A DNA stretch of 64,000 nucleotides from a virus. Lineage: Duplodnaviria > Caudoviricetes. Within the stretch, counting starts at the first letter, position 1. Every line of letters begins with the position of its first letter. The notes under the pieces are model-generated. The model did not search any database. It was given only the letters and a program-made list of their open reading frames with translations, and was not told where the DNA came from. Below are positions 2,728 through 58,554 of the stretch, piece after piece. The position numbers and the translations under genes are program-made. The DNA is taken from positions 1-64,000 of the IMG/VR virus record IMGVR_UViG_2912874417_000004. One strand, given 5' to 3'.

Positions 2728-2761
2728 TTATTTTATTTTCACTCTAAATAAATGACCGATT

Positions 2762-2926
2762 TTATGTTGTTTTCGAGCCTTTACATACATGGAAATAACC
2801 AATGATTAAAGTCAATATCCCACTTATGATGGCCGGAACAAAATACTTCTGTGCTAAGGTAAAACCCATAATAAACGCTTCAACAATACCCAAACCATAA
2901 GTTAACGCTATTACCGGTTTATTCAT
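2762..2926 (-). CDS. 54-aa membrane protein
   Basis: Not in the track: MNKPVIALTYGLGIVEAFIMGFTLAQKYFVPAIISGILTLIIGYFHVCKGSKTT; two hydrophobic segments. Confidence 0.6.
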   Translation of the reverse strand: MNKPVIALTYGLGIVEAFIMGFTLAQKYFVPAIISGILTLIIGYFHVCKGSKTT

Positions 2927-3353
2927 TTACTTAATTCCACTGGTTCATAATTTGTCACTTCATAAAATTCTTCTTTTTGATTAAATTTGATCGGCTTACC
3001 TTTGGTGAATTTTTTACCTGTTTCATCTAAGAACTCACCTTCGTCTGTTACAGCACATGTCAGTCCACAAAATTCAATACCATTAGATTCAATTAGCTTG
3101 ATGAAATCTTCATAGGTGAATATTGTGCCATTTTCATTAAACAACACTCCTTCAATATGTAAGCCCATTGCTTTAACGTTACTCATTGAAATAAACCTCC
3201 CCAAATTACTCCTGCTGTAATTGCAACAATGAATACTGAAACAAATTTTATTGCACCAATATAAACTGCAAATTTAATATCCCCTTGAGAATCCATGTTT
3301 GCTAACAACACAAGCCCAAATGCGACGAACAATATCCAAGCTGTCACAATCAT

Positions 3354-3944
3354 CTACTTAGAACCTCTTCCAACTGTATACCCGTCGGCAATGTCATCTA
3401 AGATCGTGGTACTATAAGAAACCTTTTTACTCTCATTGTCTTTATTTTTAGTGTAATTAATGAAATCATCGAACTGGTTTAAATACACTCCGTAAGCTGT
3501 GTTATTCAATTTATAAACGGTATCGTCACTTGGTTTCAAAAACCAGCTGTCAGTACCTTGTCCATAAACTTCAAAAATTTGAACAATTTCGTCCTTATAC
3601 TCAAAGTAAGCCAGCTTATTTTCAAGTTCACATTCCTCATCAACTGGATTTCCAACATGATTTGTAGCATATTCCATCATAGAAGTAAGCATGTAGCCTA
3701 ATTCGACGTCCGAGAAGCTTAACTGTGGTTTAGGTGTTCCATAATAAATATCTGCTTCATTTAGTGATCCTCTTTGGTTCACTTCTTTAATGATCTCTTC
3801 GATAGCTATGTAGCCTTCATGAATGATGAATTCCCTACGTTCCTCATCTCTTCGTTTATACTCCTCTAATAAACTTGTTACCTTAAACTCTGTATTCTTC
3901 ATCGAATTCCTCCCTGCTAATTCATTGTAAAGATTGTTGCCCAA
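3354..3944 (-). CDS. Hypothetical phage protein
   Basis: 196-aa co-oriented ORF; likely start at MKNTEF. Confidence 0.65.
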   Translation of the reverse strand: MGNNLYNELAGRNSMKNTEFKVTSLLEEYKRRDEERREFIIHEGYIAIEEIIKEVNQRGSLNEADIYYGTPKPQLSFSDVELGYMLTSMMEYATNHVGNPVDEECELENKLAYFEYKDEIVQIFEVYGQGTDSWFLKPSDDTVYKLNNTAYGVYLNQFDDFINYTKNKDNESKKVSYSTTILDDIADGYTVGRGSK

Positions 3945-3950
3945 CCTTCT

Positions 3951-4313
3951 TTATTTAAAATAAATCACATGGTCTTCCCAGTTATAGTCATCATCATATT
4001 GACCGTCTTTATAATAAAACGGAGGAACTAGCTTCATTAATATCCATCCCATAGTTTCGGGATCATTCGTTAAAGAAATGTCCACATAAACCCTTGTGTA
4101 TCTGTATCCTCGACAATAATCACTGAATTTTCTTGCTTCAATTGCTTTCGTGGGTGTCTGAATGAATCCCGATCTATTGATGAGGATTTCTTCATTCAAT
4201 TCTGAAACAATTGATTGCAACTTATTGACGGCTTTTTCTTTAGTATCTGAATAAATCATGATATTACGATGCATTGCATTTAGACTCATTGGACAACCTC
4301 CAACTGTTTGCAA
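3951..4313 (-). CDS. Hypothetical phage protein
   Basis: Co-oriented ORF overlapping the upstream stop. Confidence 0.65.
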   Translation of the reverse strand: MQTVGGCPMSLNAMHRNIMIYSDTKEKAVNKLQSIVSELNEEILINRSGFIQTPTKAIEARKFSDYCRGYRYTRVYVDISLTNDPETMGWILMKLVPPFYYKDGQYDDDYNWEDHVIYFK

Positions 4314-4702
4314 ATGTTAGCATATTCTTGAATGCTATTAATGATCGTGATGATCCAACCCCTCACCTCTTCCGGTTCTTTAAAATCCATCTCACTTTTA
4401 AGACAGTATTCATCGATCTCAATCATTGCAAGAAATTGATCATTGCTTGGTAAATTTTCAAAATCAATGCTCTTTAATCTTGGAATGCCCTTTACCTTAA
4501 TCCATTCAATGAAGGAATAATCAACATTGTTTTTTGCAGCTACGATTTTTAAAAACTCATGAATATCAGAAGAGTTTTCAATATTGAAATAAATGTGGAG
4601 ACTCTTCTTCATGAGATCAAATAATCGCAATAGAGCTTCATCAATTTTATTGTCTGTTTTAGTCTCGAAGTTTATATCAAACCAGGACATTGCGTTCTTC
4701 AT
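4286..4702 (-). CDS. Hypothetical phage protein
   Basis: Co-oriented ORF with RBS GGAGGG. Confidence 0.65.
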   Translation of the reverse strand: MKNAMSWFDINFETKTDNKIDEALLRLFDLMKKSLHIYFNIENSSDIHEFLKIVAAKNNVDYSFIEWIKVKGIPRLKSIDFENLPSNDQFLAMIEIDEYCLKSEMDFKEPEEVRGWIITIINSIQEYANICKQLEVVQ

Positions 4703-5096
4703 TCATTCCCTCCTTGTGCAAATCGATTATTTCTGGTACCCGTTGAAAGAAAGTAATAATGCAATCCCTAGCATCATGTGGATATTCGCAGTCAATTTCG
4801 GCATCGGATATGTAAATTTCATATTCAATGCTCGATATTAGTTGAGGATTATAAGGTAGCTCGAACTGTAAGTACCTCTTAAGATTAGGTAACTGCTCAT
4901 TGGCAAACTTCAAGAACTTCTTTTCATACTCAGGAACACGTTTGTATAATTTGTTTACATGTTCTTCAATTGTGTTTGCGTGCACTTTGTATAGATTCTC
5001 GAACAGCGTTTTGTTGATGTCCATTAACTCACTTAGAGCTTTAACAGCTCCCTCGTCTCCATTTAGAGTAACACCCCACCATTTATCCAAATGCAC
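4677..5096 (-). CDS. Hypothetical phage protein
   Basis: GTG start after RBS AAAGGATGA, just downstream of the dyad at 5115. Confidence 0.65.
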   Translation of the reverse strand: MHLDKWWGVTLNGDEGAVKALSELMDINKTLFENLYKVHANTIEEHVNKLYKRVPEYEKKFLKFANEQLPNLKRYLQFELPYNPQLISSIEYEIYISDAEIDCEYPHDARDCIITFFQRVPEIIDLHKEGMNEERNVLV

Positions 5097-6158
5097 TTAA
5101 TCATCCTTTCTATTTAAAATCAACATTTTATTCATTTACAGCAGAAGTCCAATTTTTACATCATCGACGTAATCAAGATCAAGTGTTAGTGTTTTACCTA
5201 TTCTCAAACCCAATGAGTTTTCCATTATCGTTTTTAATTATGATATGCCCTGTGTCAAAGTTGATATTTGCTACTTCAAACCATGAATTATTGTATAATG
5301 CTTTTCCAATCATAATAGCAATCTCCCTGTGAAAATTTGAGGTCTTTTACTGCTCTTTTAAATGCTGTTGTCTATTTCTTCAAGATGATTCCCTTCGTAT
5401 TTAGGACAATCAAAATCAGTTTCATTACCAGTCGAACCATAGTCAAATTCATTGCTTTGTCCATATGACATGGTTTCACTTTTCAAAGTCATCAAGGTTG
5501 ATTCCATAAATGCTCTTAATCCAATCTTTAATTATGTGATCCCATCCTCCAAGTAGACCATTCCATGCGAGGACATCTCTAAACACTTCTGAGCTCGTCA
5601 TTTCTAAAATTTCTTTATCCATGGAGCCGTCTTTCTTATCTAAACCCTCTCTCTGTCTTACATACTGAATAATGCTGTTTGGATACTTTTCTTCTAACAG
5701 TTTTGTGCAATCCATTATCATTTCCCCTCTCAGGATAAAATCAGAAAACCAATATTTTATTAGCTGAAATCAACTTCATCCTCAGTCACTTCGAGTTGAT
5801 TTCCATTTTCATCTTCAACGACTGCTACCATCAATTCTGGATAAAGCTCTACAAATTTATAATGTTTGCCATCCTTTTTTAATTTTAAATGTAAACCCAT
5901 ATTAATCCCTCCCTATATAAAATTGAATCCGGCTATGTTGAAAATCATTTTTCAAACTTACCTAAGTCATACATTTGGTCAAGTAATTTCATTGAGAAAT
6001 CAATGGCTTCACTATATACTGCATAACTTAATGCCCCTGTTGAGTTTAAACCATTTAAGAAATCAGCCATTTCAGCCTTCAATTTCTCTTTATTTGTCGC
6101 ATCTGGTGATACTCCCCAACTCATTTATTGCACCTCTTTTCTGATTAAAATTAGAATT

Positions 6159-6716
6159 TCATTCAGTAATATGGAAGTCAAAATTCAGGTCACTAATGTC
6201 AACATGTTTTTCTTCGCCATCAGGTAGCTTTATTTTCACTTTCGTATCAATTCCGCACGTTGTATGTTTAATTTTTTCAAGTATCTCCACTTTCTCATTG
6301 TTCAACTTCGCTCTATTAAAATTCAAAATTTGTTCGTTAAACTCTAATTTATACGAGTCCCCGATATCTTCATTAATATCACAAATGCTTATATTCAGCT
6401 CCTTCTCTTGATTCAGACTCAAGAGGTACTCCCTAACTTTTGTTGCCAACTCCAAGGTAAACCAATGAAAACTCTCTTCACACTTTCTACCCAGCTGTAT
6501 AGAAAAGGCGGCGGGCTCATCATCAAAGAAATACATTCTGTAGCCAACATAGCTATCGGTGCAATACCAGTTTCCAACCCAATAACATTTCAATCTATCT
6601 TGTTCAACACATGGTACATTATCAATTCCCAACTCATATCCTATGTCATCAGTGTCAACCCATTGTCTGTTTTGTTCTGATTTATCAATTTTATTAGCAA
6701 TATCAATTAGCTTCAT
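6159..6716 (-). CDS. Hypothetical phage protein
   Basis: 185-aa ORF with RBS; its TGA stop forms one arm of the dyad at 6146-6161. Confidence 0.7.
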   Translation of the reverse strand: MKLIDIANKIDKSEQNRQWVDTDDIGYELGIDNVPCVEQDRLKCYWVGNWYCTDSYVGYRMYFFDDEPAAFSIQLGRKCEESFHWFTLELATKVREYLLSLNQEKELNISICDINEDIGDSYKLEFNEQILNFNRAKLNNEKVEILEKIKHTTCGIDTKVKIKLPDGEEKHVDISDLNFDFHITE

Positions 6717-7792: not shown

Positions 7793-8736
7793 TTTATCCC
7801 CCTTTCTTTTAAGTACATAAACAGTTGCATATAATTGTTGTTAGTATATCCATATGTATTATGAAAATGTTCATGGCAAGAATCACACAAGGTCAACCCG
7901 TTATCAACTTCTAGTCGAATATCTTTATGCTCCATATAATTATAGATATGGTGAGCAGTTAAATATTTTTTCTTTTTAAGCCAGCATTTTTGACATGTGT
8001 AATCATCCCTCTGTAGAACCTTCCTTCTCCACTGTAAATATTCACGATACTTTCTGTCATTTATCCTCTGAGTATCAGTTTTATTCTTATTCCACCTCGG
8101 ATTACCTTCTCTAAAACGACTCTTCCTATAGCACTGCTGGCATCCCCCTCCTTGTTGAAAATAGTTCCACGCAATTTCTCCATAGTGTCCATTCTTACAT
8201 TTAAAAGCTAACTTGCTCTTTTCGTTGGCGTATTCATTTGATAAAAGCAATAAGTTTTTCTTTAAGAATTCTTCTTTAATATAATCAATGCTCAATTTTA
8301 GGCTTTCCTGATGACATTTTAAACATTTAGATCCATTATTAATTTGAGACCACAATTTTGTTGATTTATGACCATTCTTTAAACAGATCAAATCAACTTT
8401 ACCTTTTACACCTTTGTATTCTGATGTTAAAATAAACCCTCTTTCCCTCGCTTTATCCTCATAATAAGAATGGCTATGTCTTTTACATTCATATTTTTTA
8501 TTTTTGTACAACCGGTTAAATTCATCATATTTAACTGACTTAACATTTGTGCATTTCTCTTTGTCACAAGAAACTAAAACCATTTTTTCAGAAGTAAGTG
8601 GTAAATGATAATATGGAACATGAAATTTATCCCTCCAAAAGGTAAATTCATATCCTAGTGTTTGATAGTGTCTCGATGTCATAGGATTCCAGCTGACCTC
8701 AACCTTTTGTTCTTTAATAATGCCTATACATTTCAC
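7789..8736 (-). CDS. HNH endonuclease with repeated zinc-finger modules (free-standing homing-endonuclease-like)
   Basis: C-terminal RDDYTCQKC...AHHI...[14 protein letters not shown]; two CxxGH...W...CxxC repeats. Confidence 0.85.
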
Positions 8737-9221
8737 TCCTTTGTTTATTGTTCATGATTACAAAACGTTTAGTTCGCTTGGCTCAACAAAGTATGAATGG
8801 CCAATTTCATTAATGTATGAGGGGATTGCTCCCCTCTCTTTTATGCTCCTCTTCCAAATCCATAAAGTACTACTGGCATTGTATTCACCTCCTTTAGTGA
8901 ACAAATGTACTTCGTCTAACCAGCTCGTTTAAAACTAGTTGAAGTTTTCTTCTTTGGTCTTTTATGTAAACATTGTTATCAGTACGCAATCCATCATTAA
9001 TTCTATTTGTATGTCTGTCTTCAGTGTCTCTAAGCTTTCTATTGGCAATTTTTCTAGACCAACTTTATATGATTGATTCATTTTAATAGCCTCCAGCAAA
9101 AACAAGTGAAATTATCAATAACCAAAAGACTGCTCCAGAAACAGCAAGAAAGCTTTTTGCAATACTCATAAATTCTTGAAAATCATTCTTCACTGCATCA
9201 CCTTCTCTTTAAATACAGATT

Positions 9222-9563
9222 TCATAAAGAATTAAGTCCGGCACAGTAATTGCAAAACGCTACTCCGCTGTTAGTTGCCCAATCTTCCCCTAATTCATCT
9301 CCACACTCAGCGCATCGGCAGTTCGATATTACTTCGTTTAGAAAAGTAATGTGATCGAGTAGCGACGGAATATCTTGGCGGGCGTTTGCGATGAAATTTG
9401 CGTCCTCTTCATCCGTGGTTTGTGCAGTCAGTAATCCGCCAATTGTTCCGATATTATTTAATCCGTTTGGTGATTGCTTCCCGATTCGCCACGGACCTTC
9501 CGTAGCCTCCTCCGAACGCTTTCGGATTACTTCGAGTTGATCTTTCGTCAATTTACCGCTCAT
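9222..9563 (-). CDS. Ead/Ea22-like phage protein with C-terminal Zn ribbon
   Basis: ATEGPW...DANFIANARQDIPSLL pattern, then CAEC...CNYC. Confidence 0.55.
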   Translation of the reverse strand: MSGKLTKDQLEVIRKRSEEATEGPWRIGKQSPNGLNNIGTIGGLLTAQTTDEEDANFIANARQDIPSLLDHITFLNEVISNCRCAECGDELGEDWATNSGVAFCNYCAGLNSL

Positions 9564-11989: not shown

Positions 11990-12361
11990 CTAGAACCACG
12001 CATCATCCACGCCGCTCTTCTCATCTCCTCCACTCTCAATTAAATTAATTTGATCCTCAATTTCCTCAATAAATCCCTCTAAAGCTTCTTCATTAATCAT
12101 TACTTGTCCATCCTGGACTTTGACGATTTCTTTCATTCGGTCATCCATATTTCTAAATTCTTCTGCTTGCTGCACAGTAAACATTGCTCTGTATTTCTTT
12201 ATGTATAAAAGAAAATCTTTAAGTACTCCGATCTCCCCAATTTTGTGGAGATTAAAATCTTCTTGTTCCACTTCCAGCCGAAGTAAAGTTGCTTCCTTTT
12301 CTAAAACATCAATTTCAAGCTGTTCTTTCTTTGACAACAATTCTCGCTCTTTTTGTTGCAA
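11990..12361 (-). CDS. Hypothetical coiled-coil phage protein
   Basis: RBS AGGAGGTGA with TTG start. Confidence 0.65.
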   Translation of the reverse strand: MQQKERELLSKKEQLEIDVLEKEATLLRLEVEQEDFNLHKIGEIGVLKDFLLYIKKYRAMFTVQQAEEFRNMDDRMKEIVKVQDGQVMINEEALEGFIEEIEDQINLIESGGDEKSGVDDAWF

Positions 12362-12912: not shown

Positions 12913-12914
12913 AA

Positions 12915-15642: not shown

Positions 15643-16057
15643 ATCTCCTTTTTGTTTTAATTTGATTCTAATAAACTCAAAAAATTAACTGCTGCAACTC
15701 TATACCTTTGGTCTTCTTCATAAGCTGCAACTTGTTTCATATGCTCCAAAAACACATCTTCAAGCCCATGTTTTTGAATAAATCCTAAACACAGACCATT
15801 CCTGAAGAGCATGTCGTCATATTTTGCTTGCAAATCTTTATAATTGTTATTGTTTATCGTCTTTTTCCTCCTTATTGTTTAGATAAAAGTCTTCTTTTAT
15901 AGAGATGTACATTCCATCAACACCCCTGTTTTTAAAACCTTTTCATGAAACAACCGCTTTGTTGGGCATAATTGTCGAGCTTTTTGAGTATTTTAAGTTG
16001 TACCCTGGCTGAGACCCTCCACTGGACAAACATCATGATCTAAGCCAGGGGTTTAAA

Positions 16058-21575: not shown

Positions 21576-22540
21576 TCCACAACTCCCTTTTCTTTATTTT
21601 TTGTTTTTATCTTTTTCATGTCTTACATCTAACTCATTCATATCATTGAGAATATGGTCAATAACAACATCACTAAACTTACCGAATGCCTTATATCCAA
21701 TTAATTTGCTTCTTAGATCTCTCCACTTTCTTGCTGCACTCATTTTGCGTCCCCTTCCTATGAAACTGTGATTTTATTAAGAGATTCCTTCAACATTTTT
21801 ATGTAGTATAGCCAATGTCGCTTTTATGCCATGAATCGTCCCAATTAGAAAATCATTGTCTATAGCATCTTTTTTTACATTATTAAAGTAATCAATTAAA
21901 TCTTTTTCAAACTGCTGCTCAATATTCTCTTTAGGAATTCTTCTATTTGACACGTAATCTATATTTTTTTCTAAGATGTCTTGTATACCGGCTATTAATT
22001 TATTATGATCCTCAAACTCTTTTTTGCTTTTTTCAAATTCCTGTATAAGCTTTAGTGCCTTACTAAAAAAGATGTTCTCTATTCTCATGTTAAGACTCCT
22101 TTGTAACTTTAATTAATCGAATTTAAAATAAAATCATCCTTTTAATGTAATGAATAAATTCCAGGTTCGCCGATGTCGCCCCCTAATGAATTAAGTGCTT
22201 TAAATTCTAATTTAACTGCCAAGTCTCCATCTGTGTTGAATTTAATTTTATCTACGCTTACCTTGACCACTTTTGTTTCTCCCTCATAGCTTGTCAATTT
22301 CATTTTCAATGGGTCTGTATGTGTTCCGTCTAAACCAAACACTTTAAAAGCTAATGAATCCTTACCAGTGTTTATTATGATTTTGTCCTCATTCTCAACA
22401 GCTTCAATGTTCTGGCAGTGAAGGACAATTTTCGTTTCCTTCGGTAAATAATTATTAAATTTTTCTTTATAAACAGAGATTTCCTTTAAAATCATATCTG
22501 CCTCTCCTTTTGCAAAATTGGTTTAAAATAAAACTTTTAT

Positions 22541-22927: not shown

Positions 22928-24738
22928 CCTTTATCCAGTTATGCGTTCAGAACTCCGTTCCAGTCATTAAATTCTTCAATATCCTCGTTCTTTTCCTTCT
23001 GTCGCAATTCATCTGCTTCTACTTTTCCAATAATTTTTTTAACTTGTTCAATTAGACTCCATTTTCTTAAACCTGAGTATATGATTAACCCCGGAACTCC
23101 AGTGCCTGCAGCTAATGTATTTTTCGTAATAAAATCCTTAACCTCCCATTCTAAAATGTGCCATCGTAAAACTTCCCCTTCTTTAACGGATAATTTAATT
23201 TCATATGTACCTCTAGCAGTTGTAATCTTCTTTGTTAATTCCATAACATCACCCTCAGTGTATTTTGAGTTCATGCGGATTTCTCCTCGTTAGATAAAGA
23301 GTGTACTCACATACAGAACGATCAACGCAAAAGCTGAATACAGTAAAGACTTGCCTGCTTTCTTGAAGATGTTTTCGTTTTTTTCTTGATCTGACTGTTT
23401 TACACCTTTGACAAATATATTGAGTAACACACCGATGACAAATGCATGAGGTAAAGTGGCATGGGTATTTTGAATGTTGTATGTATCAATAAGCAAAGGA
23501 TTTAACACGTGATTCAATCCATAATAGACAACTAGTGACATAGTCAATGCTTCAACAAAAATGAGTAACCCAACTACAATCATTGAACCTGATCCGATAA
23601 AGAAACCGTTCCAAATATCTTTTGTATTCTTATTCAATAAATATCTCTCCTTTAGTCTTTTTTAATTAGCCTCTTCCACCAAGAAGCTTTACGTTTTTCT
23701 TCCTCTTTAAAGCGTTCATAGTTTTCTTTAACTTGCTGATTCCATTTCTCTATTTTTTCTTGTGTTTGAATCGCTTTTTCAAGGCTCTCTTTATCTTCAA
23801 TTGTTTTAATTACCTTGTCAGTCTGATATGTCCATTCATTTTTTGTATTGCGCTGCCTGTCTGTTACGACTACGTATTCGTTAAACCCTGGGATATACAC
23901 TTTCCCTTCGATTTCAATTGGGTCTAAGTCAATGATCCCTTCAAAAAATGGTTGGTATTCACATTGCTGCTCAATTGGGACAAGGGCATCACACAGACCT
24001 AATGTCCAACTTTTCTTAATTACCTTCCCTTCAAATGTTGCTTTATGGCGTACCACTTATTCACCTCCTTGTAAAAGATGTTTCTTTACAAATTGAAGGA
24101 GTGTATCAACGTCTTTCGTAGTTGCCTTGTCATTGATCAAGAAGAAATCTGCCATAACATATTTTGAATAGTCGCCACTGCCATGATATTCATCTGTCAC
24201 AATTACTTTTAATTGAATATTTTCGGTTATAGGAATCAAATAAACATCTGTTCCATCTGTAATTGGAAAGTCTAAAGGGTACATATCAATTTTGTTTTCT
24301 GCTATGTATTCGTTAATTGAATATAGGATTTCTTCCCCTTCATTTTCATCAAAGCTACCAGTATAACCAGGGAGTTGTTTTCTAAAATAATCACTTAATT
24401 CATTGTTTAAATCGGTTCGCTTTCTTTCAATTTGACCTGTCATACCAACCATTAAGCCTTGTTCTTCCGCTTCACGGACAATAACCCAGTCTGCTTTTTT
24501 GAGCTTCATTTTAGTTGCCTCCCTTCTCACATTTCATTAAATGCTGCTATTGCCACCAATAGTTGCTTGGCCTCTACTTCTGCCATTTGATCTCCAATTT
24601 GCACCTTTACCCATGTATCTGGATAATCGACACTCTTAGTTGCTAGGAGTTTCAAAGTTTTTCTGTTTACTCCCCTTAATGTGAATTCGGATGTAATGTC
24701 TCTCATGGTTTTCTCCTTTTCTTTATAAAAATTGAATT

Positions 24739-25212
24739 TTAATCTAATTTCTCCAAAATAATTTTAAGATAATCTTTGAAGTCAATAGCTACAGCTTCTT
24801 CACCTTCTACACGTTTCTCATCTCTTACGCCAAAAAACCATCTATCACCTACCCACTGGCTTGCAGTTATATTATTTCTCCCGAACACATCATGGCCTTT
24901 GAAAGGATTTGCCTCTTCTATTTTCTTTAGCATAGACCTTATGTCTGTGAAATACTTAGAACGTTTTTTAAATGCATAGAAGCCAGCTTTTGTGGGGTTT
25001 TTCACCACTTCATCTTTAAAGAAGTCATATGCTTCTGTTCCTGCACGAACTCCGAAATACTCGGAATGATAAAATGAAAAACCATTCTTAATTCCGTATG
25101 TTGCTTCGAATTCATCAAAGAATTTGTTAATGTCTTCTCTTCGTTTCTTTTCAGTTTTATACCAATCGCTTTCTTGCTTAATCTCATAAATTGGTGCATC
25201 TAATGTTTCCAT
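24739..25212 (-). CDS. Hypothetical phage protein
   Basis: 157-aa ORF; its stop forms an arm of the dyad at 24726. Confidence 0.65.
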   Translation of the reverse strand: METLDAPIYEIKQESDWYKTEKKRREDINKFFDEFEATYGIKNGFSFYHSEYFGVRAGTEAYDFFKDEVVKNPTKAGFYAFKKRSKYFTDIRSMLKKIEEANPFKGHDVFGRNNITASQWVGDRWFFGVRDEKRVEGEEAVAIDFKDYLKIILEKLD

Positions 25213-25742
25213 GGCTCTATACTCCTTTTTTGTTTATCACCTAAAGACATCATTTGTTCCAATTTGTCGCATACTGCGCTTTCCCAGGAAATTTTTTATA
25301 TTTCCTTTCACTATTTCAATTCCACCACTTCACACCAAGTTCTTAGTGAACTGTCTTTTTTTAAATTTAAAGCAGCTACGCCAGCTACATCTCTATATTG
25401 AAATTCAGCAACTTTTCCATTACTGTCTAGCATTTTTCCCACATACTCTTTTCCAGCCCAAATCTCTACTGCATACTTACTCATACAACATCTCTCCATT
25501 CTCGATAAAAGTAATATTTTATTTTTACTCTTAAAGTAGTTGCAAGTAATTCATTGTCTTTTCTAATTTCATGTCTTTACAATTCTCAATGCATTCTTTC
25601 TTGATTGCTTCTCCACATTCTTTATGTACCGGAAATTCCCTATATTCTTTGTTGTCGGATATTCTTATGTAATAAACGATGTCACCAATGTGATCCTTGC
25701 ATTTAACACACTCCAATGCATCACCTCGCTTCCTATATTTCT

Positions 25743-26768: not shown

Positions 26769-27698
26769 TAAAATATCCCCTTTGTAATATAATTCTCATC
26801 TGGCACCAATACTTATCAAACAAACAATCTCATAAATCACCTTCTTTCTTTAATAAATGCTACCAATCATATAAATAATTGTTAAGAAATACTGATGATT
26901 TTGAATACTAAGTAACACAGATGTCCTTATATCAAAGGGATATTGCTCACCTTTATAAACAACTTATGTAATTTTGTAATTCCTTAGATTTAGTAAATAT
27001 CTCACCGAATTTTTTGTCTATAGTTTTCCATTGTCTTTCAGATGTTGAAGGCAACTCATTTTCAAGGTAAATGAACAACTCATCAACTCTGCTGCTAAGT
27101 TGATCCATATTTTGTGCAAGTGTTTCTTTTATTGGATCAGATATGTACACGAATCCGTCCTCCCTTATGAAAAGATAATTACTGCCTTGCCGTTGTCATT
27201 TTTTATGTATGGAGAATATGTTCGTTCTAGACAATTCCTTGACGTTCCTTCTCCCAGACTCACATTATAAATATCTCTTACTTTATGTACTTCATATGCT
27301 TGCTCTTTTGCCTGTTCAGGTGATAGCGCCTCAATTATCAAAGACGTATTTTCGTCCTTGTGATCTTTACATCTAACATAGTACCTTTTCAATAAACATC
27401 CCTTTATCCTTTCTTTTAATCCTGTTGTATTAATCCTCTTTTAGATAATGCTTGAAGAACTCGTCTAGGTTTGCAGCAATCGCTCCAGCAACTTCTGCAC
27501 AATGAGCATGACTCTTTTCTTGAGCTATTAAAAACTCAACTGCAGACTTAGCAATGGCTTTTATTTGCCCATCGTCTAATTTGCCGCTTCTTACTTCGTC
27601 TTTAATTTTTTCGGCTTCCTCTTTTAAGCTTTCTGGATAGTTCGCCACAGTCTCCACCTCTTGTATTTTATTTTTACTCTTTAAAATTGATCTTTTAA

Positions 27699-29177: not shown

Positions 29178-29223
29178 CGAATCGATCCTCTCTATCGTGT
29201 TATTAGGTTTGGTTTTTATTTGT

Positions 29224-30057
29224 TCAAATATTGTATACTTTTAGCTTTGACTCATATTTTTTATTTTCCCAATTGTTTTGTTCGGTTAAAATGCTATCTG
29301 TAGTGAAGACAGTGTCAATGTGATTAAATAGTTCACCTTTGAAGATTGTGTTCTCTGCATGAGCTACTAATAAGAAAACATTAGAAAAACCATGTTCACG
29401 TAATTTCTTTGAGCTATGGACAAAAGTACCGCCTCTGGATGAAAGGTCATCTACAATTATTACTTGGCGTCCACTCGCTCCACTGATATCTCCAACAAGC
29501 TCTAGCCCTTTTATTTCACCTGTTTCAAAATCTCTATGCTTGTGTCCTACAAGGACATTTTTAGCTTTCATCCTACTGTATCTTTTACTTGCACCTGCAT
29601 CTGGAAACATCAAATAATCTTTGTTCTCATCAAACCTCACAATTCTTTTAACTAAATTAATCAAATTAAAATTAATGAAATTTGGTTGCACTCTGTTTAA
29701 AAGTGCAGTCGTTACATCAGAATGTGGTTCGTATACTTCGATCTCTGAAAATCCTAATTCATTAATAAACTGGGCAACGTATTTCAGAGTAAATGGCGAA
29801 CCGTTCTCACTCCTATCCATTCTGCTGTACGGCATATATGAAATACTCAAACTGGTAGTTTTAATTTTTAGTTGGTCTAAGTATCTTTTAACAAACATCA
29901 GTTTTATCAAGTCAGTATTATTTTCAAATTTAAAACCTACATTTGTAGCTGAATCCGAATTCGCCAATACATCAATGCTTTTGTGATTTAAGTTTAATTC
30001 TCCATTTGGGAACTCTGTAAATTCAACTTTCTTTCCATTCACTGCAATCATCTCCAT
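29224..30057 (-). CDS. Prs-like pyrophosphokinase, probable Adps of NARP1
   Basis: FPNGE, YMPYSRMDR, EPHS, FPDAGA and VDDLSSRGGTF motifs; directly upstream of the Nampt-like gene. Confidence 0.88.
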   Translation of the reverse strand: MEMIAVNGKKVEFTEFPNGELNLNHKSIDVLANSDSATNVGFKFENNTDLIKLMFVKRYLDQLKIKTTSLSISYMPYSRMDRSENGSPFTLKYVAQFINELGFSEIEVYEPHSDVTTALLNRVQPNFINFNLINLVKRIVRFDENKDYLMFPDAGASKRYSRMKAKNVLVGHKHRDFETGEIKGLELVGDISGASGRQVIIVDDLSSRGGTFVHSSKKLREHGFSNVFLLVAHAENTIFKGELFNHIDTVFTTDSILTEQNNWENKKYESKLKVYNI

Positions 30058-30973: not shown

Positions 30974-31681
30974 CTAACTAATAATTGAGATTGTCCCCTT
31001 TTGCTTGCCAAAATTAATTGCGTCACGCTCGGTTGCTACAAGCAAGTCCACTTTATTTCCAACAATTGCTCCTCCAGTATCACTTGCAATTGCTTTGAAC
31101 GTTTTCCCACCAATGCTTACTTCAACTATTGAATTCAAGGGAATAACACTTGGGTCGGTTGCAATAACACGATACCCTTTGTAATAGATTGATTGAGTGA
31201 CATCAACACCTGTTCTAGTTGTTCCTGTGCATCCTTCTTGGCAGTGGGCAATATAAGCACTCAGCTTAACCTGGATGGTTTTCTTTGCGGCCGGTGACTT
31301 GTTTTCTTTTTTGCGTGTGTTTATTTTATTTTTATTCTTAAAAGTTGTATGCTTTGCCGTCTCACCTCCTTTCATGTGCCTTTTCTTACTTTGCTTAGGT
31401 TTAATGAGTTTTGCTGAGATAATCTTCTCTGTATGCCTTTTTAGTTGTTGTTCTTTGTTCGTTTGAGCTTTTTTAAATAGCCGTAAGACAATATTCTCAC
31501 TTGATGGGATCCTAATCTGTCTAGGCTTCTTATAAAATGATTCTTTTATTGAGTCTTCATTTCCCTCTGTTTTATGTAAATGTTGCTCATAACTTATGTA
31601 AGAAAAAGTGGCTAAGGGAATTAAAATCATCATACCATAAACGGACTTGAAAATGTGTTCTTTTATTTTATTTTTATTCAT
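30974..31681 (-). CDS. yorM: Membrane-anchored 3D-domain cell-wall protein
   Basis: N-terminal TM; IATDPSVIPL, ASDTGGAIVGNKVDL. Confidence 0.85.
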   Translation of the reverse strand: MNKNKIKEHIFKSVYGMMILIPLATFSYISYEQHLHKTEGNEDSIKESFYKKPRQIRIPSSENIVLRLFKKAQTNKEQQLKRHTEKIISAKLIKPKQSKKRHMKGGETAKHTTFKNKNKINTRKKENKSPAAKKTIQVKLSAYIAHCQEGCTGTTRTGVDVTQSIYYKGYRVIATDPSVIPLNSIVEVSIGGKTFKAIASDTGGAIVGNKVDLLVATERDAINFGKQKGTISIIS

Positions 31682-38528: not shown

Positions 38529-40043
38529 TTATCCTGCTTTAATATTCAATTTTTCAACTGTAATTAATTCATTATCGAGATTTGTTGTGAAACAATCCTT
38601 GATCCGCATATTTCCCATATTTATATGGGAGAAGACTTTTACTTTGTCGTACTCATTTCCCCTGTTTTTAAACACGTGTGTAACAAAATTTGGCTCTGGG
38701 TAAAATCCTGCTTTTAAGATTGGCTCAATTGCATCCTTCTCTTTTTTACTTAAAGGAAGAATAATCATTGCACCATCAGTCTTATCGGCAATAGCTTTAC
38801 TTCCTCTCAGGTAAGATGCGTCTATTACTTGTCCTTTTTGCCATGCCTCTTTCCAATCACCATTTAACTGAGTAGCACTCATCATATAAACATCGTATTT
38901 GTTACATAAGCCCTTTAACTTATCAGACATAAGCAAAAGGATTTGATCCTCTCTTAGGTTGACCCCGCTTTTTTTACTCATCTCCGAAAAAATTGTCACT
39001 GATGAGTGAATATAATCAAAGTAAATGTACTCAACATTATTTTTAATTACATTCTTTTCAATCGTTCTCTCGATCTCTTGGATATTGAAATCAGGAAGAT
39101 GCTCGAACCAAATATTAGACTGCTGAAGTACTTTAGCAGCTTTGCGCACAAGCTGTTTTTCTTGCTCATTGATCGTATTTCTAAGTATTTTTTTCTCTTC
39201 TACGCCACTAATATAGGCAAGTGCCAAGCTTTGCAATTCCTCTGCCATCATTTCCGTTGAGATGACCGTGGAACTTTTATTCCAAGGGTTTTTCACCCAT
39301 TCCTTCTTTTTAAGGTCGTACAACTCAGTTGCACTTAATCGACAAGCATCAGCAACCATATTCCTTGTTTTACCTCCGCCTGTAATACTTGATCGAATGT
39401 AAAACTTTTTCTTACGAGACCCACGGAAAATTGACGTAAGCATTTCGCTATTTAATGGTACTCCAATATCTGGCGACTCCTCAAAAGAATCTAATAACTC
39501 ATCAATGCCTTCTCCACCTTGAATTCCCACACTTTCAGATGAGGTTCGAAACTTCTCTTTTACATCTACAATCTTCATTTCATAAGCTGCTAGAATTTCG
39601 TCAATCGATTTCTTATCAAACTGTTCCTGCATTTTTTCTTGTTCTTTTGGATCAATTATAGTTTCATCATAAATCTCTTTGATATCGAAACCTAAACCAC
39701 TCATCTCTCTGAGCAAACTAAACTTTTTTAGTCTTTTGTAATGGTAATCAAAGTTTTCGACTACAGCCAGCTCTTGAATTCTTTCGATGTATTCAAGGCC
39801 ATTGTTATCATGAAAAATCTTATATTGGATGTCGTAATCTTTTAGATATCCATCTATCTCAACCTCATTCAATACTTCCGTCCCTTGCTGGAATAAGTTA
39901 CTCATAGCAAAAAACAGTATTGAGTGAAATCTTGAAGGGAAATCATCCGAAGTAATCCTATACTTGTTGCTTTCAGACAAGATTGTGGGATCCTTGAGTA
40001 TGCTTCCTAAAACTTGTATAATTGCTTTTTTGTCTTGTAGCAA
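38529..40043 (-). CDS. yorI: Replicative DnaB-like helicase
   Basis: GGGKT Walker A, STEM, FDYI, ATQLN and GSKAIADK motifs. Confidence 0.92.
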   Translation of the reverse strand: MLQDKKAIIQVLGSILKDPTILSESNKYRITSDDFPSRFHSILFFAMSNLFQQGTEVLNEVEIDGYLKDYDIQYKIFHDNNGLEYIERIQELAVVENFDYHYKRLKKFSLLREMSGLGFDIKEIYDETIIDPKEQEKMQEQFDKKSIDEILAAYEMKIVDVKEKFRTSSESVGIQGGEGIDELLDSFEESPDIGVPLNSEMLTSIFRGSRKKKFYIRSSITGGGKTRNMVADACRLSATELYDLKKKEWVKNPWNKSSTVISTEMMAEELQSLALAYISGVEEKKILRNTINEQEKQLVRKAAKVLQQSNIWFEHLPDFNIQEIERTIEKNVIKNNVEYIYFDYIHSSVTIFSEMSKKSGVNLREDQILLLMSDKLKGLCNKYDVYMMSATQLNGDWKEAWQKGQVIDASYLRGSKAIADKTDGAMIILPLSKKEKDAIEPILKAGFYPEPNFVTHVFKNRGNEYDKVKVFSHINMGNMRIKDCFTTNLDNELITVEKLNIKAG

Positions 40044-44718: not shown

Positions 44719-44830
44719 ACCTAATTCCTCCTCTGAGTGTTTTAATAATATTACACTCAGACATTACCCCAAAAATATCCATATAAATCACTTTCTATTT
44801 AATTTGTTTTCTTTTAAACTACAGTTTTAT

Positions 44831-47394: not shown

Positions 47395-47567
47395 TTAATA
47401 ACCACTCCTTTTTATTTTTGTTTTATTCTTAAAACTCAAATCACATAGGTAACTCACATTGTTATCACCCCCTTATAATCAACTTCATCTTTTTCAATTA
47501 CTTTTTCACATTCGCTGCAAAAGCAAGTAAACATTTTCACTCATCCTCTTTCTGTAAAATATCGTTT

Positions 47568-48008
47568 TTATTTAGACTCTATAAGCTCAGGATCTTCATA
47601 AATGTTGCCGATGACTTCTAAATCGACATTTGCTACAAATACAGTCATCATACCTTTATTGATTCGCTTGAATCTAAAACCTGGTACCTCTTTTGTCCAA
47701 TAAACTCCATCTGATGAATAATCAGCTACCTCTTCCTGCCAAAAAACTTCTAATAACTCATTTGAATATCTACGATGATTCCTTACAACGTCCCCCTCGT
47801 AAATCTCACGACCGTTTTTGTCCTTCAATCCGGTGTATTGCCCAACTGTTTCCGGCCTGACACTGTAAGCAAATGGAATACCAGCTTTATTAGAGATATA
47901 AGAACCAGATTCAATACCCATGCTCTTGATTCTTTGCTTAATGATTGATAAATTGCCGTAATACCATTCTCCGTTGATGCCCATTCCTCGAAACTTAATT
48001 TCCCTCAT
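47568..48008 (-). CDS. YopX-family protein
   Basis: MREIKFRG...GQYTGLKDKNGREIYEGD...EVIGNIYEDPEL. Confidence 0.88.
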   Translation of the reverse strand: MREIKFRGMGINGEWYYGNLSIIKQRIKSMGIESGSYISNKAGIPFAYSVRPETVGQYTGLKDKNGREIYEGDVVRNHRRYSNELLEVFWQEEVADYSSDGVYWTKEVPGFRFKRINKGMMTVFVANVDLEVIGNIYEDPELIESK

Positions 48009-48533
48009 TCTCCTTACCTCCCGTCCATTGGTCTAACATTTTCAAAATCCTCTATTTCATCAACATATTCAACGTATTCTATTTCGATATTTCCCGCGGC
48101 ATCTTCATGCACCCATACTTCCATTTCGGCTACCGCTTTCACTTTCGCTTTGTATCTCATTATCATTACCTCCATATTCAATTTACTTTTATCCTTATAA
48201 AATCTCTGTTTTATCTTCATCGAAGTTATCTCCCCTCACTAACCACCATACACTTATTTTATTTTTATCAAATAAATCAATTATGTAAGACTCGTACATG
48301 TCATCCCAATAAGGATCAGTTCTCGCTATGTATTTCTTTACTCTTCCGTTCTCCTCAATCTTGAAGGTTTGCCCCTTTTGAATATCAGTAAACTTTTTCT
48401 TTCTCCAGATTCCTCTAATCAACACATCTACTTCTTTTACCTCAACTTTTTGCCGCTGCATAACATTCCTCCTTTTTGATTTTCGTGTATCAAGCCTGTA
48501 CAATATTCAAAAAACCCTAAAGGATGATGAAAC

Positions 48534-50090: not shown

Positions 50091-50465
50091 TCTCTCCGTT
50101 ACATAATTCCTTAGTGACTCGCCATTACACACCAAATGAAAATTTAGTACATGGATCAATTAGATAATTTATCGTTAAAATAACTATTTTATTTTTATTC
50201 ATAAATAATCACCAAATGTCATAGCCTACAAAATCATTCAAAAAAATTCGTCATTCCCTCATCCTCTTCTACTGTCAATCCATATTCATCAAGCCTGCTT
50301 AAATAATCTTCTCGTTCTTGTTTGATCATTTTTTCACCTCTTTTTTATTTTTTTCAATTCTTTTTTGATTTTCATATTGCTTTTCACTCTTTTATTAATA
50401 GATGCGTGTCATACACATGCCATCTAAGAGAGATAGGACATTTTTGTCTCGGGAGGTGAAATGCA

Positions 50466-50618
50466 ATGAAAATTCTTATGGATCTCTTCACAACTTGGAT
50501 TTTTGATAAAGTCATGGATTATTCACTAGGTGCTATAATTTGGTTTGTATTCAAGTCCAAGTCAAAGCAGAATGAGTATCCCGAAGACTTTGAGGAAAAG
50601 CGTCGATTCAGACTTTAA
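50466..50618 (+). CDS. 50-aa single-TM protein (YoqT position)
   Basis: Not in the track: MKILMDLFTTWIFDKVMDYSLGAIIWFVFKSKSKQNEYPEDFEEKRRFRL; RBS GGAGGTG. Confidence 0.6.
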   Translation: MKILMDLFTTWIFDKVMDYSLGAIIWFVFKSKSKQNEYPEDFEEKRRFRL

Positions 50619-51118
50619 ATTAACTGACTCGTATTCTGATCGCTATCGCCGAGTGTAATGACTTCCGTAAATGCCACCTGCTCGACCGGCTTGATAACGG
50701 CTTGCGCGATGCGATCGCCTTTTCGGATGATGTACGAACCTTTCGCAAAATGATCCCAAGCTCCGAGGTAATCGAGAGCACTGACGATTTTATCTCTGAT
50801 ATCGAAAAGAAAGTCCTTTTCAATATCTGTATAACGATTTATATTGTCGACGATTACTCCGACCTCTCCTCGATAGCCCGAATCAACTGTTCCGAGTTGC
50901 ACACGCAGTCTAGTATTCAGCGTAATGCCTGATCGCGGACGGATTTGCATTTCGTATCCCTCCGGAATCTCGAACGCCAAACCCGTCGGCACAAGCTCTG
51001 CCCAGCCCGGTTCGATAATAACGTCCTCTGACGCCACTAAATCGAAGCCGGCGTCCGTTGCGTGCGCATAAGCCGGAATCTGTGCGTCCGGTGATAACCG
51101 TTTAATATTTACGTTCAT
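50615..51118 (-). pseudogene. dut: Trimeric dUTPase lacking C-terminal motif V
   Basis: AGFDL, RPRSG, GTVDSGYRGE and GDRIAQ are present. The protein ends GDSDQNTSQLI instead of RGxxGFGSSG. Confidence 0.8.
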
Positions 51119-51478
51119 TTCGTTTCCTCCTAATAACTGATTAAAAATTATCTTTTATCTAGACTTGTTCAGCTCTCTCTATCATCTCTACAAGCTCTTG
51201 TGCCTTGTTTAATTTTCTGCTGTAGTCTTCAACTTCTTTCTTCGCGATTGCCATTTTATCAAATAAAACGCGCCAGTTTCCATTAGGATTTCTGCTGAAT
51301 GATTTAACAATTAGGCCATTAAACCAGACGTCTAAAATTAGTCTGCTCTCACTTGTTTCAGGTTTATGACCAAAGGCAGCATCTTTATTATTACCGGCAT
51401 AAACAATTTGTTTATTTATTTCATATAGATAATTTTCAGTTTCTTTTGTAACTACATATGTATTCATTTTCCCACCCC

Positions 51479-52003: not shown

Positions 52004-52329
52004 TCGTTTCCTCCTATTCTGTTTAAAATCACGATTTTATGTAGACTAAACCTTTTTCTTGCTGTCATGCGTTCACACTTTTGGGTAAAATACTAATCTG
52101 TTAACATTAATAACTCATCAACTTTATAATTGTATTCACCGTATTCACCCGATCTCCATTTAACACCTACAGTGCCTTGATTTGTCACCCACAATATAAT
52201 TCCCATTTCCCCATTTTCATGCCATCTTACTTGCTGCCCTTTCTGATAACCAAGCATGTTTCCACCCCTTTCTTAAAAAGCATTTTAATTTAACTTTAAT
52301 GTGTATTGCCTTGAGAAAATCCCCTTTAA

Positions 52330-52990: not shown

Positions 52991-53177
52991 TTATTTTATT
53001 TTTATCCTTTAAATATTTATATGTATTCCATCCGCAGCCATCAAATATGCTTATATCCGCTCCAAGATGCCATCTAAACCAAACTAAGTTAAACCAAGCT
53101 GTATCAATTATGTGCTTTAAATAACCTATATGCCTTCCTCCTTACAATGAAATAATCCTTTTATTTTGTTTTTTTTA

Positions 53178-53795: not shown

Positions 53796-53813
53796 TTGAT
53801 AATGTCTCCTTTT

Positions 53814-54065: not shown

Positions 54066-54811
54066 TGAGTTTTTTGAAATTGACTATCGGTTCTCACCCT
54101 TTCTTTAAAACAGTCTTTTTATCATTCTTTATCACTTAAATATTCTAAATACCTAAGATGTTCAAAGAGTTCTTCATCTCTATATGCTTGAATTGCATCT
54201 TCAAGTTTAAACGAGTGTTTTATTTTTCTGCTCGTGGCTTCTGTAAATAACCTAGTGATTTTACCTTCATCTAGATAACTATGATAGCCACCACCATTAC
54301 AAAGAAATCGAAGTATATTCTTTAAATACCGATCAGATATCTGATCAACTGTGTAGGTATTATAATTTTTATCTATCCAGTCGTATTCATTTCTCATATT
54401 TTTGGTTATCCCAGTCCTCCTTTTGATTAAAACTTCAATTTTACCTATCTCCTAAAATGGTTTTACACCACTCGTTTATATCTGTTGAAATCTGATCAAT
54501 TTCAAACAACTTATCCTTTAGCATTTCTTCACCGTCTGCTCCATTAAAGCTTGCCAATCGTTCAAGTTGCTTTGAATAGTGCTTAATCTTTTCAATGCTT
54601 AATTCTAAATCCAAGGAACCGTTTTTAAGTTCAACCTCACCCATGTACTCCATTGTTGAACGAGTCCCGCATATTCCACAAAACGCTCTCTGTCTCTTAT
54701 AAAATTTATCAATAATAGTGGTATGGCCGCAGCCAGTTCTGCAAATGTGCTTGTAATGTGTCAAAAAATCTCTTCCTTTCTATTCCAATGAAATTTTACT
54801 TTTAATCTAAT

Positions 54812-57010: not shown

Positions 57011-57058
57011 ATTCTATCAACCTTTCTGATTTTTATTTGTTTAAAATGCATCTTTTAA

Positions 57059-57487
57059 TCACTTCATTGCGGCATAGTTCTCAAAGAATTCTTCAACTGA
57101 TCTCAGGTATCGGTATTTATCTGCATCTTCCGGATCTCTAAATCTTTTCGATAGTACCAATGACCAATTAAACATCAATGGAGAAAACCTCGCCCATTTA
57201 CTAAAGCTTAACTGAAGACCTTTCCATTCTCTCCCCGCTAATTCCGCTAACTCTAGAATTTGATCTTCTTTTAAATTTACTTCTTCTTCAAACATTACTT
57301 GAATTTCCTCGTATGGTTTATGTCCAAAACAACAGTGGCGTGTTTTCAATCCAATCTTGAAATTCAAAATATCAATTAAATTGATCATTTGTGTATCAAG
57401 CTCATCATAGGGTATACCATTTGCAATGAATTTTTCTCTTTGATTTGATTTCACATTATCCTCCAGCAGATTTAAATTCTCACTCAC
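57059..57487 (-). CDS. Conserved SPbeta-type hypothetical protein
   Basis: [11 protein letters not shown] motif; co-oriented. Confidence 0.65.
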
Positions 57488-57642
57488 TTCACCCCCTCCT
57501 TAAAAAATGTCTTCTCACACTCTTCACATAAAGGCGGGTGAATAGGAAGCCCCTTACAGCCGCACATATAGCCATCACAACACATAGTCATATCTACATC
57601 CGTCATCTTTCCGCATTTGATACAAGGAACTATCTCACTCAT
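57484..57642 (-). CDS. 52-aa 8-Cys zinc-finger micro-protein
   Basis: Not in the track: [52 protein letters not shown]; overlaps both neighbours. Confidence 0.65.
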
Positions 57643-57838
57643 TCCGCACCCGCCTCAGTCCAAAACAATGTCTCATTCGTTATTTTTTCCACTTTATAAT
57701 TTTTGAGGCAGTTATTATTTACGTATTCCTCTGCGTATTTCAATGCGGTTTTATCATCATTGGCGCCGAAACTGAAATGCTTCCAACCGAACTTAACTTC
57801 GTACCAAAGCTTATATTCAATACGTTTTACATCAGCAT

Positions 57839-58261
57839 TCATTCCACGCCCTCCAACAACTCAGGATTATGGTAAACGTCGCCGATGACTTCGTATTTTT
57901 TTACGCTAGGATCTGATTCACTTTTTAACCAGCTTATAGCATTCATATCTAAATCAATCCAAGGTCTTAAATCAAATGCTGGGTAATCTTCTTTTTCTAA
58001 ATATTCCACTACCCCGACATAGAATGGCTCTTTGGAAAAAGCAGAGTCGTATGTAATTTTTATATAATCTCCGGCATATATGTCTTTGCCATTGCTGTCT
58101 TTAAGACAAGTCCATAGACCCCGACTTATCAACTCGTAATCTTCTTTATCTGTGTAGATCGTCTCCCCGAAATATTCAATTTCACTCAAGGTGTAACAAT
58201 GCAAGACAATTTCATTAGTCTTCTTATGCCGGAAAACGTATCTGATTTTGATTTCATTCAT
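57839..58261 (-). CDS. YopX-family protein
   Basis: LWTCLKDSNGKDIYAGD...EVIGDVYHNPELLE. Confidence 0.82.
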   Translation of the reverse strand: MNEIKIRYVFRHKKTNEIVLHCYTLSEIEYFGETIYTDKEDYELISRGLWTCLKDSNGKDIYAGDYIKITYDSAFSKEPFYVGVVEYLEKEDYPAFDLRPWIDLDMNAISWLKSESDPSVKKYEVIGDVYHNPELLEGVE

Positions 58262-58554
58262 TACTTTTCCTCCTTATTTAAATTCGAATAAAACTTACAT
58301 TTTATTTTTATCCTTAATATATTCATGCTGATTCACAACATCACGAAGTATGTATTGTATTTCCTCTAAATTGTCTTTAACAAAGTCCAGGTCTCCTATT
58401 GCCATTCTGATTTCATTATTCTCTATGCTGCGCAAAGATCTTTCGCATGATGCTAAGAGCTTTTCATATTTCCTTAAAACCATAGTTCTTATTTGATCGT
58501 TAATTGGTTCATTAATCAATAATTAAAGCTATCTCCTTTCCTTATTCTAATCCG

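Follow-up and report, generated by a model that had tools for sequence, protein, structure and literature searches.

Heterospecific lox and FRT sites, which were engineered for the recombinases Cre and Flp, have constant inverted-repeat arms, are read by one protein and pair only with sites of matching centre. DNA flanked by two unlike sites passes from one molecule to another without deletion, and asymmetric centres set the orientation. Here we describe a natural element of comparable build, the dyad TRAAA-N6-TTTYA, in a stretch of 64,000 nucleotides (positions 1 to 64,000 of the IMG/VR virus record IMGVR_UViG_2912874417_000004, from now on the window). The window is the first part of a 130,193-bp provirus record and covers the early half of an SPbeta-like prophage, the genes of which match the early and accessory clusters yop-yot of SPbeta. 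We lean towards the view that the dyads are addressed crossover points for an ordered exchange of gene cassettes, probably read by a dimeric protein for which YopP/SroD is the leading candidate. With lox and FRT the dyads share constant inverted arms, matching and asymmetric centres and a block exchange apparently without deletion. They differ in that the system is natural, offers dozens of addresses per genome and has a candidate enzyme only. Moreover, their arms consist of 5 strong base pairs and a weak outer part, the centre comprises 6 bp, and some events involve unlike centres.

Other described systems resemble the dyads in part. The 28-bp 11-6-11 build, variable 6-bp centres, site-bounded modules and simple recombinases of the Xer type are also features of Xer/dif and of the pdif sites of Acinetobacter plasmids. 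However, pdif modules are flanked by sites of inverted XerC/XerD orientation and move between plasmids, whereas the dyads are symmetric, of one orientation, slot-specific and collinear, and YopP lies far below every Xer equivalog cut-off. Integrons likewise carry promoterless open reading frame (ORF) cassettes behind a common promoter, often with the stop codon inside the site, and have a tyrosine recombinase gene nearby. Their attC sites, in contrast, are imperfect hairpins of 57–141 bp which move together with the cassette and take part in recombination in the form of folded single strands; the dyads measure 16–28 bp, are bound to their slots, and neither attI nor Pc is found beside the recombinase gene. 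The T4-type PeSL elements and the "boundary/linker" sequences of lambdoid phages are short conserved intergenic sequences at places of module shuffling as well, with accessory genes in hyperplastic regions. PeSLs combine a promoter with a stem-loop, are the same everywhere and are shuffled in their order by homologous recombination, whereas dyads are neither promoters nor stable hairpins and preserve the order through position-specific centres. SPbeta itself contains a repeated element, SPBRE, which is the operator of the integrase-fold repressor MrpR/YopR/SroF and for which ten ChAP-seq peaks were reported (PMC10516654). The SPBRE/Phi3TRE elements are also repeated and intergenic, often stand beside dyads and have a binder with integrase fold, but they have another, asymmetric sequence, are bound by a monomer and occur in about 10–25 copies at promoters, not at swap joints. 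No description of the dyad was found in the literature covered on the motif and on SPbeta mosaic and intergenic elements, a coverage that does not include Lazarevic et al. 1999.

An exact pattern search found 25 copies of TRAAA-N6-TTTYA in the window; the whole phage genome holds 36, of which these 25 lie within the early half (Table 1). The original prediction, made from the letters of the window, had listed 21 exact copies. All of them are real and correctly placed, but it had missed four exact copies, at 8575, 12302, 31533 and 38701, of which three fall into coding regions. Its one-mismatch copies at 2749, 5744, 9209 and 44814 are as described. Dinucleotide shuffles of the window contained on average 2.8 dyads with a maximum of 8, and Markov models of order 3 and 5 gave 3.0–3.5. 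In the 9.6 kb of intergenic DNA 19–20 dyads were observed versus 0.7–1.2 from models trained on intergenic DNA (1.2 for the fifth-order model). This is the enrichment over a higher-order Markov background, with intergenic and coding hits separated, that had been proposed as a check. The most telling control is the variation of the spacing between the same arms. N6 yielded 25 matches in the whole window and all other spacings 0–4, except for N10 with 13; in intergenic DNA alone N6 yielded 20 and the remaining spacings 0–3. The mild excess at N10 comprises 12 places between positions 1268 and 60177, which are mostly intragenic and have no shared context. It is probably compositional.

Nearly all genes of the window lie on the minus strand. 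On this coding strand a dyad follows the stop codon of one gene, which overlaps its left arm or sits 0–3 nt away, and is itself followed by 17–40 nt with a ribosome-binding site (RBS) and the next start codon. The predicted succession of gene end, site, RBS and start is thereby confirmed. Neither the yorE-yorL-like block (31.7–43.9 kb) nor the nrd block contains an intergenic dyad, and the earlier statement that copies are missing between the genes of these operons is borne out for intergenic DNA. Alignment of 65 sites from the window phage and SPbeta revealed an extended site, a 28-bp 11-6-11 palindrome with the half-site TYTnnW-TAAAA. The inner 5 bp of the arms are invariant and the outer positions −6 to −4 are biased to TYT. 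Two inverted arms around a 6-bp centre represent the geometry of tyrosine-recombinase core sites of the lox/FRT/dif type. No palindromic centres were seen, although about 4.9 were expected.

In order to compare related genomes, the early regions of the window phage, SPbeta c2, phi3T, Goe11, SPbetaL2 and SPbetaL3 were aligned using blastn. Bacillus phages of the genus Spbetavirus (SPbeta, phi3T, Goe11-14, SPbetaL1-8) match the window patchily at 82–92% identity. Each of the six early regions contains 19–29 exact dyads, and in the five phages other than the window phage the motif is enriched at N6 only. Every six-base centre is unique within its genome, and the order of the centres showed 0 inversions in 15 phage pairs. 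Only about 3 identical centres were expected by chance between genomes, whereas same-centre pairs across phages had both flanks homologous in 33 cases, one flank in 68 and neither flank in 53; centres differing by one base occurred at chance level only. For 16 of the window phage's 25 dyads the centre recurs in one or more of the comparators; this makes 44 pairs, a single one of which is homologous on both flanks. Since the centres are position-specific, conserved and collinear, the sites belong to slots and not to cassettes. The predicted difference between all spacers holds within each genome, but the centres are more than merely different: they behave as slot addresses shared between phages.

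Homology starts clustered at −18 to −7 and homology stops at +6 to +11 from the dyad centre, which are the two edges of the site. Of 542 breakpoints 111 fell within 20 nt of a dyad, compared to 9 under a uniform null model and 62 under a gene-end null model. The identity profile of same-centre pairs is a step function, which is random outside, rises to 100% over the 16-mer and then turns random or homologous. In informative comparisons synteny was broken at 83% of the dyad junctions, but only at 40% of the dyad-less junctions with gaps of at least 15 nt and at 32% of those with shorter gaps. When a single cassette between two different dyads is gained or lost, one dyad remains at the empty locus. 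Consequently, the gene gain and loss breakpoints that had been proposed as a check coincide with the dyad edges and leave one site behind, in agreement with the predicted role as recombination joints of accessory cassettes. In-register homology of a flank goes along, with exceptions, with an identical centre, as for a crossover within the core that needs a matching overlap. Pairs of unlike centres with seemingly homologous flanks were mostly threshold noise, but four cases proved real when examined by hand. Short conserved sequences bound alternative modules in these related phages, which is the pattern of linker-type exchange. Crossovers recur at the same 16-bp cores, and cores with the same arms but other centres normally do not pair.

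The scan of IMG/VR with one 16-mer recovered about 31 SPbeta-like prophage contigs. These contain 171 dyads at N6 versus 3–30 at other spacings, and at the slot of dyad 57042 at least 10 types of left flank are combined with at least 10 types of right flank in many combinations. In genome contigs the scan with one 16-mer gave, among the matches listed, only chance matches in AT-rich genomes.

Crossovers between two such phages have been followed experimentally. In evolved B. subtilis with co-resident SPbeta and phi3Ts, 16 homologous junctions and one non-homologous junction were found (bioRxiv 10.1101/2020.05.06.055103, Dragos et al., Suppl. Table 1). The chromosome coordinates of that study were calibrated to the SPBc2 record via junctions 4 and 8, and junction 7 confirmed the calibration to the base. 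Junction 7, listed with a homology of 30 bp, is the extended dyad at 69,424–69,439 of SPBc2 and 62,423–62,438 of phi3Ts. Here 28 of 30 positions are identical between the phages while the flanks are unrelated. The sole non-homologous junction, N1, lies on the SPbeta side in the left arm of the dyad at SPBc2 116,415–116,430, just after yorZ, and on the phi3Ts side in a TAAAA at a stop codon, which lies upstream of the same-centre dyad at a distance of 13 nt. All 15 remaining junctions lie within homologies of 400–19,760 bp. The two events with the least homology, 2 of 17 junctions, both use dyad sequence, although shared dyads make up less than about 1% of the homologous target length. Re-read from the table, these two junctions favour a crossover at dyads; they are supportive and not a proof.

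Dyads also occur in distant phages. The relatedness of the proviruses G002 and G003 (158 and 177 kb) to SPbeta is confined to about 64% identity in a single gene. These two proviruses contain 70 and 73 dyads at N6 versus 2–12 at other spacings. Both have 43 identical 16-mers in common, all in the same orientation and order, and at the protein level both flanks are homologous at 10 of these, one flank at 23 and neither at 10. Within each of the two genomes every centre occurs once only. Isolated identity islands of at least 16 nt outside homology blocks corresponded to about 20 dyads and 2 near-dyads versus about 7 other sequences. Near-identical centres are depleted in both genomes (26 versus 37.5 expected in G002, 27 versus 44 in G003). 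G001, a metagenomic 123-kb phage without nucleotide similarity to SPbeta, contains 48 dyads, the inner arms of which are as in SPbeta while the outer arms are different. It encodes its own Xer-like recombinase of 305 amino acids. Tentatively, and with more reservation than for the SPbeta-like dyads alone, we suggest that a natural system of addressed cassette exchange, in which a Xer-like recombinase joins sites of matching centre only, extends from SPbeta-like phages to one or more unrelated groups of large AT-rich phages.

Because the arms are identical at every site, one dimeric protein could read all of them. We propose that exchange would begin when SPbeta-like genomes meet in one cell, either as prophage and infecting phage or as two prophages. 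Strands would then be exchanged within the 16-bp core of matching sites, and the gene block between two sites would be replaced with no change to the order of the genes, the stop codon, the RBS or the operon structure. Identity of the centres would be the pairing requirement, as for heterospecific lox/FRT sites, and the unlike centres within one genome would block recombination from site to site and hence the deletion of genes. Site-specific exchange would be the simplest single explanation of the findings. The enzyme may be a Xer-like simple tyrosine recombinase, with YopP/SroD as the best candidate. The YopP-like protein of the window possesses the full catalytic set of R, K, HxxR, H and Y. 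Its nearest NCBIfam models are XerA, XerC and XerD, all of which score far under their cut-offs (75 bits versus 220 for XerA, 53 versus 335 for XerC). Thus, YopP is a member of the superfamily only and does not reach the Xer family cut-off. Homologs of YopP are encoded in the dyad-rich records G002, G003 and G005. YopP/SroD has been listed among the core genes that are likely active in lysogens, and the literature assigns no function to it. SPbeta has a second orphan recombinase, YomM, but the window phage lacks a clear ortholog of it, which puts YomM behind YopP as a candidate.

Several observations speak against a dedicated crossover system. N1 pairs an SPbeta arm with a TAAAA that is not part of a dyad, one cassette indel has its crossover apparently in the RBS just past the dyad, and cassettes are also lost between unlike centres. 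Short-homology recombination accounts for all three equally well or better. Some swaps are dyad-free: the borders of the phi3T/phi3Ts "s" fragment are not at dyads. The outer arms carry little information, less than classical lox or dif arms, and the depletion of similar centres is modest and not present in the window phage genome. The compared phage pairs are not independent samples. G001 has no YopP homolog by sequence, and the co-occurrence of recombinase and dyads is weak evidence because tyrosine recombinases are common in temperate phages.

These points lead to an explanation in which the dyads are mainly docking sites, in double-stranded DNA, for a dimeric phage protein that is not a recombinase, such as a silencer or an architectural protein like the DndB/ParB-fold YopQ acting in the KorB-OB manner. 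Swaps would then occur by microhomology, with the shared 16–30 bp as the sole microhomology left for general or phage annealing recombination. We consider this possible but rather unlikely. Palindromic, invariant inner arms with little information further out and a fixed position relative to stop codon and RBS would suit such a docking site, repressor boxes often adjoin dyads, and YopQ is a DndB-family DNA-associated protein encoded beside the repressor. N1 and one indel resemble microhomology events, and at 28 of 30 identical positions annealing is conceivable for junction 7 too. However, homologous recombination in B. subtilis normally needs far more than 16–30 bases, which weighs against swaps by microhomology. 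The share of experimental junctions at dyads is likewise out of proportion to their share of the homologous target, and identity islands without dyad arms are rare. Furthermore, palindromic and near-identical centres are under-represented, which a pure docking site would not need, and deletion of yopQ is reported not to activate the prophage.

Two alternatives of the original prediction, mRNA processing signals and repressor operators, fared worse than addressed exchange. A role in mRNA as an intercistronic signal for processing, stability or translation, through a weak hairpin or a nuclease site, would explain why the dyads have a fixed place between stop codon and next RBS and occur within operons only. 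Nevertheless, it is very unlikely: the 28-nt segments fold at −1.2 kcal/mol compared to −0.85 kcal/mol for shuffles, and arm variants that give an A·C mismatch in RNA (12) exceed those that give G·U (6). The symmetry also reaches the outer half-sites, which vary independently, and an mRNA signal does not explain position-specific centres that are kept while both flanks are replaced. That the dyads are operators (SPBRE) of the master repressor MrpR/YopR/SroF is barely credible, even though this repressor has a tyrosine-recombinase fold (PMC10516654) and some dyads lie near bound promoters. From the ten SPbeta promoters bound in ChAP-seq we derived a box that is A-rich, asymmetric and unlike the dyad, and the SroF protein of phi3T has been shown to bind, as a monomer, to a box of 26 bp (bioRxiv 10.1101/2025.11.27.690993). 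The ten ChAP-seq peaks contrast with 29 dyads in the 74 kb of SPbeta examined, and about 25 SroF-type boxes of the window phage lie at positions other than the dyads. The derived and the published box both differ from the dyad, and its identity as MrpR/SroF operator was rejected; the operator alternative may apply to another dimeric protein. Further identities were rejected as well. Matches resembling sigma-A promoters were not enriched, with 60 versus 56.7, and strong ones were never on a dyad; no intrinsic terminators are present at dyads; and an integron attC does not agree with slot-specific, collinear sites of 16–28 bp without a stable fold.

Table 1: Dyads of the window and the two proteins considered as their binders. 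The five comparators are SPbeta, phi3T, Goe11, SPbetaL2 and SPbetaL3.
Feature	Position	Strand	Remarks
One-mismatch dyad	2749..2764	.	Centre equals that of the last SPbeta dyad
Dyad	5115..5130	.	Exact match
One-mismatch dyad	5744..5759	.	
Dyad	5939..5954	.	G/C variant in both arms
Dyad	6146..6161	.	Arm is upstream stop codon; centre in SPbeta, neither flank homologous
Exact match in coding region, doubtful member	8575..8590	.	No shared centre
One-mismatch dyad	9209..9224	.	
Exact match in coding region, doubtful member	12302..12317	.	Exact pattern match
Dyad	15884..15899	.	Intergenic; centre one base off slot in SPbeta, phi3T and Goe11
Dyad	21761..21776	.	Intergenic; 0 nt from upstream stop codon
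Dyad	22129..22144	.	Arm is upstream stop codon; centre in SPbeta (homologous on left side) and Goe11 (homologous on neither side)
Dyad	22524..22539	.	Centre in SPbeta (homologous on right side), phi3T and Goe11 (homologous on neither side)
Dyad	24726..24741	.	Arm is upstream stop codon; centre in SPbeta (homologous on left side), phi3T and Goe11 (homologous on neither side)
Dyad	25506..25521	.	Centre shared with none of the five comparators
Dyad	27682..27697	.	Directly downstream of Nampt-like/Prs-like pair; centre in 5/5 comparators, right flank alone homologous in 4 of 5
Dyad	31533..31548	.	Within or before yorM-like gene; centre in SPbetaL3, left flank homologous
Exact match in helicase (yorI-like) gene	38701..38716	.	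SPbeta match at same coding position; probably coding sequence only
One-mismatch dyad	44814..44829	.	
Dyad	47555..47570	.	Arm is stop codon of YopX-family gene; centre common to SPbeta and Goe11, neither flank homologous
Dyad	48198..48213	.	Last codons of upstream ORF read through dyad; borders, with 47555, a cassette that SPbeta is without
Dyad at strand switch	50176..50191	.	Centre common to SPbetaL2 and SPbetaL3; right flank homologous to SPbetaL3 only
Dyad	51142..51157	.	Intergenic; centre one base off slot held by five other phages
Dyad	52024..52039	.	Centre common to SPbetaL2, which has one additional cassette here with a second dyad as its border
Dyad	53148..53163	.	Centre common to SPbetaL2; neither flank homologous
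Dyad	54106..54121	.	Centre in 5/5 comparators; right flank homologous to SPbeta only
Dyad	54428..54443	.	Left arm is stop codon of upstream gene; centre borders yoqH-yoqI cassette in SPbeta; phi3T without yoqH-yoqI
Dyad	54789..54804	.	Downstream joint of RNA-repair cassette; centre in 5/5 comparators, homologous on one side in 4 and on neither side in 1
Dyad, centre GATGCA on coding strand	57042..57057	.	Upstream joint of kinase-phosphatase-RNA ligase cassette; centre in 5/5 comparators, both flanks homologous in one only
Dyad	58289..58304	.	Intergenic; first in dense array below 58555-58583 promoter; centre in 5/5 comparators, homologous on left side in 2 and on neither side in 3
YopQ-like DndB-family protein, alternative candidate binder	60858..62207	-	Pfam DndB, E 2.6e-16
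YopP/SroD-like simple tyrosine recombinase, candidate enzyme	62284..63342	-	Pfam Phage_integrase and N-terminal SAM-like domain

The cargo between the dyads is made up of typical accessory and counter-defence genes. It includes a polynucleotide kinase-phosphatase-RNA ligase fusion, a Nampt-like/Prs-like pair, a YopX-family gene, a shortened dUTPase and many small genes without family match. Below the promoter at 58555-58583 the array at 50–58 kb lacks any further strong promoter, in line with the predicted promoterless cassettes. The fusion gene (54812-57010, minus strand) lies between two dyads and encodes 732 amino acids with a P-loop kinase, a metallophosphatase and a T4 Rnl1-type RNA ligase. 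Goe11 and SPbetaL3 carry the same cassette in this slot, SPbeta and phi3T carry yoqD instead. The neighbouring Nampt-like and Prs-like genes (27699-30057, minus strand) are of the NAD-salvage type and have an exact dyad directly downstream. The pair resembles NAD-restoring pairs, and Gad1 and Nip sit in such regions of relatives.

Hence the dyads may explain the fast reshuffling of anti-defence repertoires in SPbeta-like phages. Phage genomes are of mosaic build, and ever since the modular theory of phage evolution was put forward it has been debated if dedicated linkers serve the exchange of modules. The dyads are explicit linkers, which occur in large number and bear an address. Both SPbeta and phi3T contain them, and because no temperate phages of B. 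subtilis have been studied more closely the question is directly testable by genetics. If addressed exchange is true, related phages that reside in or infect the same cell together would trade anti-defence and accessory genes slot by slot and at high frequency, without ever scrambling or deleting parts of their own genome. It would then be a phage-borne counterpart of engineered cassette exchange with heterospecific lox sites. An enzyme with centre-specific pairing would, furthermore, come with a ready supply of orthogonal recombination sites, dozens in number, for engineering the genomes of Gram-positive bacteria.

Some further observations concern recombination in these phages. The hybrid PP526179 was considered as a test case. 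Its phi3T-divergent part ends 5 nt from a dyad at 29,399, but the crossover cannot be placed because SPbeta and phi3T are identical to the right of this dyad. The 19.7-kb block identical in SPbeta and phi3T starts at most 5 nt from the dyad at 29399-29414 (L272, PP526179; about 39,886 in SPBc2), which adjoins yomL/yomM in the late region. In the phi3Ts-SPbeta hybrid Hyb2 the junction lies within the homologous mtbP block and is hence uninformative. Upstream of the yorE promoter the centre is reverse-complemented in phi3T and SPbetaL3 relative to SPbeta, Goe11 and SPbetaL2, with a homologous left flank (L003 19340 and L006 27592 versus L004 20554 and SPbeta L001 39498). This dyad appears to be either an inverted site or the result of two substitutions. 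In G001 a gene for a GIY-YIG endonuclease of the group I intron type is located directly upstream of the Xer-like recombinase gene (L129 368-1087). The whole record of the window phage contains a second tyrosine recombinase gene outside the window (108340-109359, plus strand), and no serine recombinase (PF00239) was found across the whole 130,193 bp. Therefore, the phage probably integrates by a tyrosine integrase rather than by a SprA-type enzyme.

Copies resembling the SroF/MrpR box were found on the minus strand of the window at 58586, 52990, 50183, 43012, 42574, 31662, 31320, 25774, 12892 and 12803, the copy at 58586 being situated on the strong promoter 58555-58583. Further boxes of this type occur at 64–82 kb of the record. 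These boxes, and not the dyads, look like the repressor operators of the window phage. Finally, residues 12-95 of the 167-amino-acid ORF at 50615-51118 (minus strand) match the first approximately 85 of the 129 positions of the Pfam dUTPase model. This ORF looks like a truncated or fused dUTPase.

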